From Escherichia coli (GTDB taxonomy: Bacteria; Pseudomonadota; Gammaproteobacteria; Enterobacterales; Enterobacteriaceae), in assembly GCF_003334355.1 (NCBI RefSeq), contig NZ_QOWP01000064.1: 7,192 nucleotides of DNA. One strand, written 5' to 3'. Shown here piece after piece: positions 1,032-5,727 of this stretch (position 1 is the first letter of the stretch; every line of letters starts with the position of its first letter). The translations under genes and the position numbers were made by a program. The notes below the pieces were generated by a model. It was given only the letters and a program-made list of their open reading frames with translations, was not told where the DNA came from and made no database searches.

Positions 1032-4000
1032 TTGAATCATGAGCGGAAAACCAGCGGCGCGTCAGGGAATATGACTCAGTATGGCGGTCCCATTGTCCAG
1101 GGTTCGGCAGGTGTAAGAATTGGCGCGCCCACCGGCGTGGCGTGCTCGGTGTGTCCGGGCGGGATGACTTCGGGCAACCCGGTAAATCCGCTGCTGGGGG
1201 CGAAGGTGCTGCCCGGCGAGACGGACCTTGCGCTGCCCGGCCCGCTGCCGTTCATTCTCTCCCGCACCTACAGCAGCTACCGGACCAGGACACCCGCGCC
1301 GGTGGGAGTGTTTGGCCCCGGCTGGAAAGCGCCTTCTGATATCCGCTTACAGCTACGCGATGATGCACTGGTACTCAACGACAACGGCGGGCGGAGCATT
1401 CACTTTGAGCCGCTGCTGCCGGGGGAGGCGGTGTACAGCCGCAGCGAGTCAATGTGGCTGGTGCGCGGTGGTAAGGCAGCGCAGCCGGACGGCCACACGC
1501 TGGCGCGGCTGTGGGGGGCGCTGCCGCCGGATATCCGGTTAAGCCCGCATCTTTACCTGGCGACCAACAGCGCACAGGGGCCGTGGTGGATACTGGGGTG
1601 GTCAGAGCGGGTGCCGGGTGCTGAGGACGTACTGCCAGCGCCGCTGCCGCCGTACCGGGTGCTTACCGGGCTGGCAGACCGTTTCGGGCGGACGCTGACG
1701 TACCGGCGTGAGGCCGCAGGCGACCTGGCCGGGGAAATCACCGGCGTGACGGACGGTGCCGGGCGGGAGTTCCGTCTGGTGCTGACCACGCAGGCGCAGC
1801 GTGCGGAAGAGGCCCGCACCTCTTCGCTATCTTCTTCTGACAGTTCCCGCCCTCTCTCAGCCTCAGCGTTCCCCGACACACTGCCCGGTACCGAATACGG
1901 CCCCGACAGGGGTATCCGCCTTTCGGCGGTGTGGCTGATGCACGACCCGGCATACCCGGAGAGCCTGCCCGCTGCGCCACTGGTGCGGTACACGTATACG
2001 GAAGCCGGTGAACTGCTGGCGGTATATGACCGCAGCAATACGCAGGTGCGCGCTTTCACGTATGACGCGCAGCACCCGGGCCGGATGGTGGCGCACCGTT
2101 ACGCGGGAAAGCCGGAGATGCGCTACCGCTACGACGATACGGGGCGGGTGGTGGAGCAACTGAACCCGGCAGGGTTAAGCTACCGCTATCTTTATGAGCA
2201 GGACCGCATCACCGTCACCGACAGCCTGAACCGGCGTGAGGTGCTGCATACAGAAGGCGGGGCCGGGCTGAAACGGGTGGTGAAAAAAGAACTGGCGGAC
2301 GGCAGCGTCACGCACAGCGGGTATGACGCGGCAGGAAGGCTCACGGCGCAGACGGACGCGGCGGGACGGAGGACAGAGTACGGTCTGAATGTGGTGTCCG
2401 GCGATATCACGGACATCACCACACCGGACGGGCGGGAGACGAAATTTTACTATAACGACGGGAACCAGCTGACGGCGGTGGTGTACCCGGACGGGCTGGA
2501 GAGCCGCCGGGAATATGATGAACCGGGCAGGCTGGTATCGGAGACATCGCGCAGCGGGGAGACAGTACGCTACCGCTACGATGACGCGCACAGTGAGTTA
2601 CCGGCGACGACAACGGATGCGACGGGCAGCACCCGGCAGATGACGTGGAGCCGCTACGGGCAGTTGCTGGCGTTCACTGACTGCTCGGGCTACCAGACCC
2701 GCTATGAATACGACCGCTTCGGCCAGATGACGGCGGTTCACCGCGAGGAAGGTATCAGCCTTTACCGCCACTATGACAACCGTGGCCGGTTAACCTCGGT
2801 GAAAGACGCACAGGGCCGTGAAACGCGGTATGAATACAACGCCGCAGGCGACCTGACTGCCGTCATTACCCCGGACGGCAACCGGAGCGAGACACAGTAC
2901 GATGCGTGGGGAAAGGCGGTCAGCACCACGCAGGGCGGGCTGACGCGCAGTATGGAGTACGATGCTGCCGGACGTGTCATCAGTCTGACTAACGAGAACG
3001 GCAGCCACAGCGACTTCAGCTACGATGCGCTGGACCGGCTGGTACAGCAGGGCGGCTTTGACGGGCGGACGCAACGTTATCATTATGACCTGACCGGAAA
3101 ACTCACGCAGAGTGAAGATGAGGGGCTTATCACCCTCTGGCACTACGATGCGTCGGACCGCATCACGCACCGGACGGTGAACGGCGACCCGGCAGAGCAG
3201 TGGCAGTATGATGAGCACGGGTGGTTAACCACCCTCAGCCATACCAGTGAAGGCCACCGCGTGTCGGTCCACTACGGCTATGACGATAAAGGCCGCCTGA
3301 CCGGCGAACGCCAGACGGTGGAGAACCCGGAGACGGGGGAACTGCTGTGGCACCATGAGACCGGACATGCGTACAACGAACAGGGGCTGGCAAACCGCGT
3401 CACGCCGGACAGTCTGCCGCCGGTGGAGTGGCTGACCTACGGCAGCGGCTATCTTGCGGGCATGAAGCTGGGCGGGACGCCGCTGCTGGAGTTCACGCGC
3501 GACCGCCTGCACCGTGAGACGGTGCGCAGCTTCGGCAGCATGGCAGGCAGTAATGCCGCATATAAACTGACCAGCACATACACCCCCGCAGGCCAGTTAC
3601 AGAGCCAGCACCTGAACAGCCTGGTGTATGACCGTGACTACGGGTGGAATGACAACGGCGACCTGGTGCGCATCAGCGGCCCGCGACAGACGCGGGAATA
3701 CGGCTACAGCGCCACGGGCAGGCTGGAGAGTGTGCGCACCCTCGCACCAGACCTGGACATCCGCATCCCGTATGCCACGGACCCGGCGGGCAACCGGCTG
3801 CCGGACCCGGAGCTGCACCCGGACAGTACACTCACAGTGTGGCCGGATAACCGCATCGCGGAGGATGCGCACTATGTCTACCGCCACGATGAATACGGCA
3901 GGCTGACGGAGAAGACGGACCGCATCCCGGCGGGTGTGATACGGACGGACGACGAGCGGACCCACCACTACCACTACGACAGCCAGCACCGCCTGGTGTT

Positions 4001-5261
4001 CTACACGCGGATACAGCATGGCGAGCCACTGGTCGAGAGCCGCTACCTCTACGACCCGCTGGGACGGCGAATGGCAAAACGGGTCTGGCGGCGGGAGCGT
4101 GACCTGACGGGGTGGATGTCGCTGTCGCGTAAACCGGAGGTGACGTGGTATGGCTGGGACGGCGACCGGCTGACGACGGTGCAGACTGACACCACACGTA
4201 TCCAGACGGTATACGAGCCGGGAAGCTTCACGCCGCTCATCCGGGTCGAGACAGAGAACGGCGAGCGGGAAAAAGCGCAGCGGCGCAGCCTGGCAGAGAC
4301 GCTCCAGCAGGAAGGGAGTGAGAACGGCCACGGCGTGGTGTTCCCGGCTGAACTGGTGCGGCTGCTGGACAGGCTGGAGGAAGAAATCCGGGCAGACCGC
4401 GTGAGCAGTGAAAGCCGGGCGTGGCTTGCGCAGTGCGGGCTGACGGTGGAGCAACTGGCCAGACAGGTGGAGCCGGAATACACACCGGCGCGAAAAGTTC
4501 ATTTTTACCACTGCGACCACCGGGGCCTGCCGCTGGCGCTCATCAGCGAAGACGGCAATACGGCGTGGCGCGGGGAGTATGATGAATGGGGCAACCAGCT
4601 TAATGAGGAGAACCCGCATCACCTGCACCAGCCGTACCGTCTGCCAGGGCAGCAGCATGATGAGGAGTCGGGGCTGTACTATAACCGTCACCGGCACTAC
4701 GATCCGTTGCAGGGGCGGTATATCACCCCGGACCCGATTGGGTTGAGAGGTGGATGGAATATGTATCAGTATCCGTTGAATCCCATACAAGTGATAGACC
4801 CAATGGGGTTAGATGCGATTGAGAATATGACATCAGGTGGACTAATTTATGCCGTATCTGGTGTACCTGGATTGATTGCTGCAAACAGCATTACTAACAG
4901 TGCTTACCAGTTCGGTTATGATATGGATGCTATTGTTGGCGGAGCTCATAATGGGGCCGCCGATGCAATGAGACATTGTTACTTGATGTGTCGAATGACT
5001 AAGACATTTGGATCAACAATAGCTGACGTGATAGGTAAAAATCATGAGGCGGCAGGGGATAGACAAGGTCAGCCAGCTAAAGAAAGAATCATGGATCTTA
5101 AAAATAACACTGTCGGTATTGCTTGTGGCGATTTTTCTGCCAAATGTAGCGATGCATGTATTGAAAAATATAACACTGGGCAACTCTTCGGGTTAGATGG
5201 TATAAAAGCAGATAATCCAATAAAAGCAAAGCAAGGGAGTTCAGATGCTTCAAATTATTAG
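1032..5261 (+). CDS. Rhs-family polymorphic toxin: PAAR-like N-terminal domain, YD-repeat shell, RHS core ending in DPxGL, variable C-terminal toxin
   Basis: 1409-codon ORF ending at TAG 5259-5261. Many YD-type repeats ([86 protein letters not shown]). Core terminus is [32 protein letters not shown]. The start is ambiguous: in-frame candidates are TTG 1032 and ATG 1071, while the ATG with the best Shine-Dalgarno (1039) is in another frame. Confidence 0.9.
1039..1074 (+). other. Short [14 protein letters not shown]-stop carrying the PAAR motif, out of frame with the rhs body
   Basis: ATG 1039 preceded by GAAGGA (1025-1030) with an 8-nt spacer. It translates atg agc gga aaa cca gcg gcg cgt cag gga ata tga. 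Confidence 0.6.
4731..4811 (+). other. RHS core C-terminal boundary with two DPxGL motifs (DPIGL 4731-4745, DPMGL 4797-4811)
   Basis: Both motifs read directly in the rhs frame. The sequence turns from GC-rich to AT-rich across this segment. Confidence 0.8.
4812..5258 (+). other. Rhs variable C-terminal toxin domain, about 149 aa, family not recognised
   Basis: Sequence downstream of DPMGL: [151 protein letters not shown]-rich, with five Cys and several His. Confidence 0.7.
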
Positions 5262-5727
5262 AGGCAAACTTGTCATTTTTTTAATTACCCTTTGTTTATT
5301 TGTTGTTTACCTTGGGTTTGATAACAATTCAAATTCTGACATCGTATTTTATGGACATAAAACACCAAAGAGCGTTGAGATATATCTTTCTGAAAAAAAT
5401 ATTATTTATAAAATAATTAATGACCAAAAAATTAGTAGAGGGAATGGTCATTTTATAAGTGTAATGGTTAATAATTACAGGACGCACTGTGGAGTGGTTG
5501 ATATAAATCTTAATTTTTTCAATGATATTCTTTATAGCGTGCGATTAAAAAACATTAGTAAACTGGAGAATATGGAGTTCTGCGCTACAAAACAACGGGT
5601 GTATTTTAGTGATAAAAACAAGAAGGCTAGTTATAAAATAATTAATTATGGAGACTATTATGATGTTGATTATTATGATAACAATTTGAAAAATGAAGTT
5701 TTTGACTGGATTGGTAAATGGTCATAA
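5245..5727 (+). CDS. Putative cognate Rhs immunity protein (160 aa) with N-terminal hydrophobic signal/anchor segment
   Basis: ATG 5245 preceded by AGGGAG (5234-5239) with a 5-nt spacer. It overlaps the rhs stop by 17 nt and ends at TAA 5725-5727. Positively charged start (RGK) then hydrophobic [17 protein letters not shown]. Same AT-rich composition as the toxin domain and the usual position for an Rhs immunity gene. Confidence 0.7.

Follow-up and report, generated by a model that had tools for sequence, protein, structure and literature searches.

The DNA analyzed here is a single stretch of 7192 nt (hereafter the window). Matches to E. coli chromosomes extend from one end of it to the other and reach 99.9% identity. 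The annotation of the best matching genome, H1, places in this region an N-terminally truncated vgrG fragment, an RHS element core protein, ydcD, yncO and remnants of an ISAs1-family transposase. In the window itself, NCBIfam identifies RHS_core and YdcD, as well as fragments of VgrG (its C-terminal part, 25-969) and of an ISAs1 transposase. The window is an E. coli rhsE-type locus, comprising a vgrG fragment, rhs, ydcD and an ISAs1 remnant, and the gene family to which its central gene belongs, that of E. coli RhsD/RhsE, is one that has long been known. The features of this gene and its downstream neighbor are as follows:

1032-5261, + strand: Rhs core open reading frame of 1409 aa, counted from a mechanical TTG start, with a Met at 1071
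1173-1406, + strand: DUF6531 N-terminal plug of the Rhs shell (Pfam, aa 48-125; role taken from PMC10684867), which marks the real boundary between tip and shell
1818-1868, + strand: Ser- and pyrimidine-rich tract, aa 263-279 of the reading frame that opens at 1032, or 250-266 when numbered from Met 1071
5245-5727, + strand: ydcD (YdcD family), downstream of rhs and overlapping it

At the upstream end, vgrG (25-972, + strand) retains only its C-terminal ~315 aa (TIGR03361 positions 383-512), and in the near-identical H1 genome PGAP likewise calls the vgrG N-terminus missing, with a Tn3-like transposase fragment located just upstream. The rhsE-type locus thus looks degraded. At the other end of rhs, the C-terminal toxin domain that follows the DPMGL cleavage motif (4887-5129, + strand) has no match in NCBIfam and corresponds in Pfam to DUF6973 (E 3e-12). 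The overlapping ydcD gene is presumably the cognate immunity gene of the Rhs toxin.

The rhs copy itself has a damaged start. Specifically, one G is missing between positions 1068 and 1069, which converts GGA GAT ATG to GGA ATA TGA, and owing to this 1-nt deletion the canonical rhs ATG at 1039 runs into a stop at 1072-1074. The long Rhs reading frame that can be read from Met 1071 therefore does not contain an intact PAAR-like N-terminus. The deletion was seen in none of 3608 matched E. coli records, and the H1 copy, at 99.9% identity, has an intact Rhs N-terminus, so that the deletion is either a private pseudogenizing mutation or an assembly error. Together with the truncated upstream vgrG, it indicates that this rhs copy may be non-functional, and possibly a pseudogene, unless the deletion is an assembly error. 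Despite the damaged start, membership in the Rhs gene family is not in doubt. Pfam PF20148 (DUF6531) is matched at aa 48-125 with an E value of 2.8e-18, there are at least eight RHS_repeat matches with E < 0.001, and the DPxGx18DPxG motif of the C-terminal aspartyl-protease plug (as defined in PMC10684867) is present in the translation before the variable toxin. Pfam RHS repeats are significant from aa 367 onward, with weaker matches from aa 211, and NF041261 ("RHS element core protein") aligned over aa 1-310.

The closest solved structure by sequence is that of P. aeruginosa Tse5 (8cp6, E 1e-123). In Tse5, residues 1-47 form a PAAR-like fragment that is cleaved at K47/P48, and the DUF6531 domain (48-124) forms the N-terminal plug, with the YD-repeat barrel directly after it (PMC10684867). 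The conserved PVNPLLGAK sequence of the E. coli protein aligned with the start of the Tse5 shell chain, that is, with the Tse5 N-terminal cleavage site. This alignment places the boundary between the PAAR-like tip and the plug near aa 49 (the tip ending at ~aa 47-49) and the end of the plug at aa 125, with the shell starting right behind it. A further point of likeness involves a short helical segment at ~1503-1538 of the window (model helices 145-156, Met 1071 numbering), which aligned with Tse5 ~145-171. This segment overlaps a Tse5 surface protrusion (141-167) that is absent from RhsA and Rhs1 and that is implicated in membrane binding (PMC10684867), and E. coli Rhs proteins appear to share the protrusion.

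We analyzed the composition of the tract at 1818-1868 (ACCTCTTCGCTATCTTCTTCTGACAGTTCCCGCCCTCTCTCAGCCTCAGCG), which in the Rhs frame encodes 17 aa, nine of them Ser. Its pyrimidine fraction is 74.5% relative to an ORF mean of 44% (z = 4.1), only 17 of the 7142 51-nt segments of the whole 7192 nt reach this value, and 14 of the 15 top-ranked segments begin at 1812-1827. The GC content is 57% in the tract versus 62% in the ORF. At the protein level, 9 of 17 residues being Ser compares with 6.3% Ser overall (binomial P ~2e-7 per window, with 1393 windows), and the three lowest-entropy 17-mers in the whole protein are those at aa 262-264. This confirms that the Ser-rich, low-complexity and pyrimidine-rich tract described in the first-pass annotation is real and goes well beyond chance.

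To place the tract within the shell we built an AlphaFold2 model of residues 1-1200, numbered from Met 1071, using an alignment of 33 diverse full-length relatives. The model (mean pLDDT 87.7, pTM 0.80) is an all-beta spiral with TMt values of 0.75-0.86 to Tse5, RhsA and other Rhs cores; the comparison with the Tse5 shell, 8cp6_B, gave a TMt of 0.86, an E value of 2.6e-89 and 30% identity. Around the tract the following elements are found, with residue numbers being those of the model:

1767-1790, + strand: preceding shell beta-strand REFRLVLT (233-240), part of the conserved DGxGRxYRL hairpin motif
1791-1829, + strand: short predicted helix (241-253), at the C-terminal end of which the tract begins
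1830-1913, + strand: predicted coil (254-281), with pLDDT < 50 at 258-270 (~1842-1880 of the window)
1914-1943, + strand: following shell beta-strand (282-291), with the conserved DxGxRLxxV motif; homology to Tse5 picks up again here
1791-1904, + strand: the whole variable connector of 38 aa, between the two conserved shell strands
1871-1878 and 1901-1908 (1871-1908 overall), + strand: pair of 8-nt direct repeats CCCCGACA, 30 nt apart, bracketing a unit that is duplicated in strain PF9285 (see below)

The tract thus lies ~140 aa beyond the end of the plug at aa 125 and has shell beta-strands on both sides (233-240 and 282-291). Residues 258-270, with their pLDDT < 50, are the longest low-confidence internal segment of the model, and TOP-IDP, a disorder proxy that considers only composition, adds modest support with a value of +1.5 SD at the tract (rank 105 of 1376). 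Flexibility, which had been proposed from the sequence and left to disorder prediction, is therefore supported at the level of prediction. No hydrophobic or amphipathic character was found in the loop, and no loop-specific Pfam or NCBIfam domain was found. Its biased composition, its low predicted order and a connector length that ranges from 2 to 43 aa among relatives are those of an intrinsically disordered low-complexity loop, which it probably is.

The range of connector lengths comes from the wider Rhs family. A first homologue search returned nearly only E. coli and Shigella sequences, and diversity was obtained from an exhaustive HMMER search of cluster representatives, from which 34 sequences were aligned, the relatives being at most ~65% identical. 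Among these 34 sequences the flanking motifs DGxGRxYRL and DxGxRLxxV are conserved, and the connector that they enclose is 2-43 aa long (median 14.5); the 38 aa of the query is the second longest. Pairwise alignments to relatives often break at query positions 236-250 and restart near 265-279. In the case of Tse5, the alignment extends to "...SYALVYQQA" (chain residue 182) and resumes from "DDGLRL" (189), which leaves ~6 residues between. The same two strands are thus joined by ~37 residues here (38-41 when differing anchors are used) versus ~6 in Tse5. Where distant relatives have long connectors these are also low-complexity and rich in S, T, P and A, and they are unrelated in sequence, as exemplified by P0200 (DKPNPTSNPTLGATPSNTPSTSAVS) and P0185 (PSSADEAARVQSGGTAAPGGASATAP). 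The low-complexity inserts that distant relatives carry at this site are independent ones. Variable loops on Rhs shells are an already described property of solved Rhs structures, and published Rhs core structures differ chiefly in their loop lengths (bioRxiv 10.1101/2024.02.26.582050).

Among E. coli rhs alleles, a DNA alignment of nine copies revealed three length classes at the tract. The first is the form present in the window, which also occurs, with an identical tract, in K-12 rhsD. The second is a +9 nt form (RKQRTASLSSPDTPRPLSASA), and the third is the RhsA/B/C form with a net change of -12 nt (RQQAISGGTEPSA). When 118 fetched proteins that contain both anchors were compared using wider anchors, connector classes of 33, 34, 36, 37, 41 and 44 aa were observed. 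Length is also changed by duplication. Specifically, the rhsD gene of strain PF9285, which is annotated as intact, contains an in-frame 30-bp tandem duplication directly 3' of the tract (L010, 101-281), so that a 10-aa unit occurs twice.

Sequence varies along with length. Between the 41-aa and 44-aa forms, the flanks differ at 2-3% of positions and the tract at 15-19%, a substitution rate 6-7 times as high in the tract (Fisher P = 4e-4 and 6e-5). Relative to RhsA/B/C, the tract differs at 47-53% of positions and the flanks at 21%, which is a 2.3 times difference. Note that in the comparison of the 44-aa and 41-aa forms there are four non-synonymous differences at 1821-1847, and at every one of them the 41-aa form has Ser, against A, P, T and P in the 44-aa form. 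Three synonymous changes lie within those 10 codons, and the direction of change is unpolarized as the outgroups are unalignable there.

We also addressed whether the TCT repeat within the tract changes in copy number. To this end, 5426 complete E. coli genomes were searched with a 151-nt query in which the repeat had been altered to (TCT)4 or (TCT)2, the best place in each record being scored. Neither version was the best match at ≥ 99% identity in any of the 5426 genomes, versus 2331 records in which the best place was at least 99% identical to the native (TCT)3 sequence; a further 508 records had their best place in the 80-90% identity band, which is where the +9 form is found. The expectation that the tract is prone to indels between alleles thus holds in one respect, in that length does vary between rhs lineages (+9, net -12 and +30 nt), and fails in another, as there is no change of (TCT)n copy number among the best matches in the 5426 genomes. 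A mixed picture also emerges for the combination of conservation and structure that would have spoken against a flexible, variable tract, since the tract is conserved within the short class of RhsD/E, variable between classes and predicted to be unstructured. The near-invariance within the RhsD/E short class could reflect constraint, and is explained equally well by recent spread together with gene conversion between rhsD and rhsE.

Several rearranged rhs sequences were encountered in this survey. The OkiPb01680 allele (L006) is a mosaic that is RhsD/E-like 5' of the tract and RhsA/B/C-like from ~100 nt 3' of it (~1975 onward in window coordinates), which suggests that the two rhs subfamilies have recombined within the core. 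In VTB96933v (L003 ~323-336, corresponding to ~1673 of the window) a 14-nt tandem duplication (GGCGGACCGCTTCG) frameshifts the rhs copy, which PGAP annotates as a frameshifted pseudogene. Two E. coli proteins, P0114 and P0023, are chimeras in which the first ~375 aa of an Rhs N-terminus, including the 44-aa form of the loop, are fused to VgrG sequence. Both are annotated as TssI/VgrG yet carry DUF6531, and they look like the product of an rhs-vgrG rearrangement.

Comparison with known systems helps to define what is particular to this connector. Over the 401 nt surrounding the tract, the copy in the window and K-12 rhsD are 98.8% identical, with no difference in the tract, and the two share a PAAR-like tip, a DUF6531 plug, a YD shell, the DPxGx18DPxG C-terminal plug and a variable C-terminal toxin. 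Unlike K-12 RhsD, the window copy lies at an rhsE-type locus, downstream of a truncated vgrG and upstream of ydcD, and it carries the private 1-nt deletion that removes the canonical start. E. coli RhsA, RhsB and RhsC have their connector at the same site with the same FPDTLPG...TEYG and GIRLS flanking motifs; however, their connector is 4 aa shorter and is not Ser-rich (RQQAISGGTEPSA). Tse5 has the same overall fold, its PAAR-like tip, DUF6531 plug and barrel follow one another as in the E. coli protein, and the strands that flank the loop align in the two, but the ~37 residues, Ser-rich tract included, that join these strands in E. coli RhsD/E are replaced by ~6 in Tse5. Rhs cores that have been compared structurally include those of S. 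bongori, A. mimigardefordensis, P. protegens RhsA, P. laumondii Rhs1 and V. parahaemolyticus RhsP (bioRxiv 10.1101/2024.02.26.582050), and in Tse5 the protrusions at 141-167, 873-914 and 1031-1062, one of which is flexible, have been proposed to bind membranes (PMC10684867). The RhsD/E loop resembles the loops and protrusions of these comparisons in having a lineage-specific length on a conserved shell, where some are likewise flexible or not visible. It is not one of those that are named there, from which it differs in its position, behind shell strand four or five, and in having no helical or amphipathic character. The RhsD/RhsE literature that we covered, which probably does not extend to the classic Rhs papers of the 1990s, contains nothing on this segment.

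We favor, with a probability of roughly 85%, a reading in which the tract is the low-complexity core of a tolerated, weakly constrained and lineage-specific loop insertion in the RhsD/RhsE shell that has no dedicated function. The site is early in the YD-repeat shell of this E. coli subfamily, where one beta-strand passes into the next. All that the shell would require at this point is that the two strands be joined, which ~6 residues do in the closest solved homologue, and because the short Tse5 joint suffices, the longer RhsD/E connector would be under weak constraint. This connector is predicted to have no fixed structure, takes up substitutions several times faster than its flanks and tolerates in-frame insertions, deletions and duplications. 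Its Ser/Pro/Ala-rich composition and the pyrimidine-rich DNA that encodes it (TCN, CCN and GCN codons) would then result from drift and would not be a signal in themselves. The loop, which we infer to be solvent-exposed, probably has no dedicated role in VgrG binding, autocleavage or toxin release. Two observations count against drift, namely the near-invariance of the tract within the RhsD/E short class and the all-to-Ser direction of its substitutions, which drift does not predict.

Other readings of the tract fit the data less well. The first-pass annotation took it to be a flexible linker that connects the PAAR/VgrG-binding N-terminal domain with the YD shell, and it is true that the tract is predicted to be flexible and that it falls within the first fifth of the protein. 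However, the domain map contradicts this assignment, which we regard as extremely improbable. The PAAR-like tip ends at ~aa 47-49, as indicated by alignment of PVNPLLGAK with the Tse5 cleavage site, the DUF6531 plug occupies aa 48-125, and the tract at aa 263-279 is situated amid shell strands, with several confident ones (model 162-240) between it and the plug and more after it. In practice, it is the DUF6531 plug that should be used to draw domain boundaries in Rhs proteins, and low-complexity tracts should not. A different proposal gives the loop a function on the RhsD/E surface, as a module that contacts the target membrane, VgrG or an adaptor, or that provides a Ser-rich site for phosphorylation or proteolysis. 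There is precedent in the lineage-specific protrusions of Tse5, one of which is flexible and not visible in the structure and which are proposed membrane binders (PMC10684867). In addition, the tract is conserved within its own allele class, the substitutions towards Ser are directional and the helix that precedes the tract is conserved among enterobacterial forms. Set against this, RhsA/B/C and most relatives lack the Ser-rich sequence, many having just 2-16 residues at this site, and the loop shows no amphipathic or hydrophobic character and matches no loop-specific Pfam or NCBIfam domain. Moreover, a 10-aa duplication adjoining the tract and a 3-aa indel are both tolerated, so that we consider a functional module of this type unlikely. 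A more specific version, in which the Ser-rich loop is a selected, solvent-exposed element, either a flexible protrusion or a modification site, that lies near the N-terminal aperture and has an influence on how VgrG or an adaptor docks, on contact with a membrane or on how the shell opens, is in our view very unlikely. If it were true, selection and not drift would account for the Ser residues at all four amino acid differences of the 41-aa form from the 44-aa form.

The tract could also act at the level of DNA or RNA, as a (TCT)n slippage repeat, as an intragenic terminator or attenuator or as a preferred junction for rhs recombination. Each of these has some feature to recommend it, as (TCT)3 is present in the tract, a consensus scan flagged a terminator-like hairpin with a T-rich tail at 1806-1835 (+ strand; GAAGAGG / CCTCTTC), and the mosaic OkiPb01680 allele switches subfamily nearby. 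None of them withstood closer analysis. A slipped-strand contingency locus is not indicated by a repeat for which altered copy numbers are the best match in 0 of 5426 genomes, against 2331 records with (TCT)3 (≥ 99% identity, best place per record). The hairpin folds no better than shuffled sequence (z = -0.77, with 35 of 200 shuffles folding as well), its U-run is interrupted, and it is not conserved in the other allele classes, which fold differently; it is a by-product of Glu-Glu codons that adjoin Ser-Ser codons. As for recombination, the sole mosaic allele seen switches ~100 nt downstream of the tract and not inside it. There are also no Rfam matches in the window at gathering thresholds that would suggest a structured RNA, and no promoter-like sites on either strand at 1600-2100. 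A role at the DNA or RNA level is thus largely refuted, and we give it scarcely any credence.

If the tract is, as we favor, the core of a tolerated loop insertion in the RhsD/RhsE shell, then it matters little beyond correct annotation. Since the connector tolerates insertions, it would be a reasonable site for placing a tag, or for shortening constructs, in structural work on E. coli Rhs proteins.
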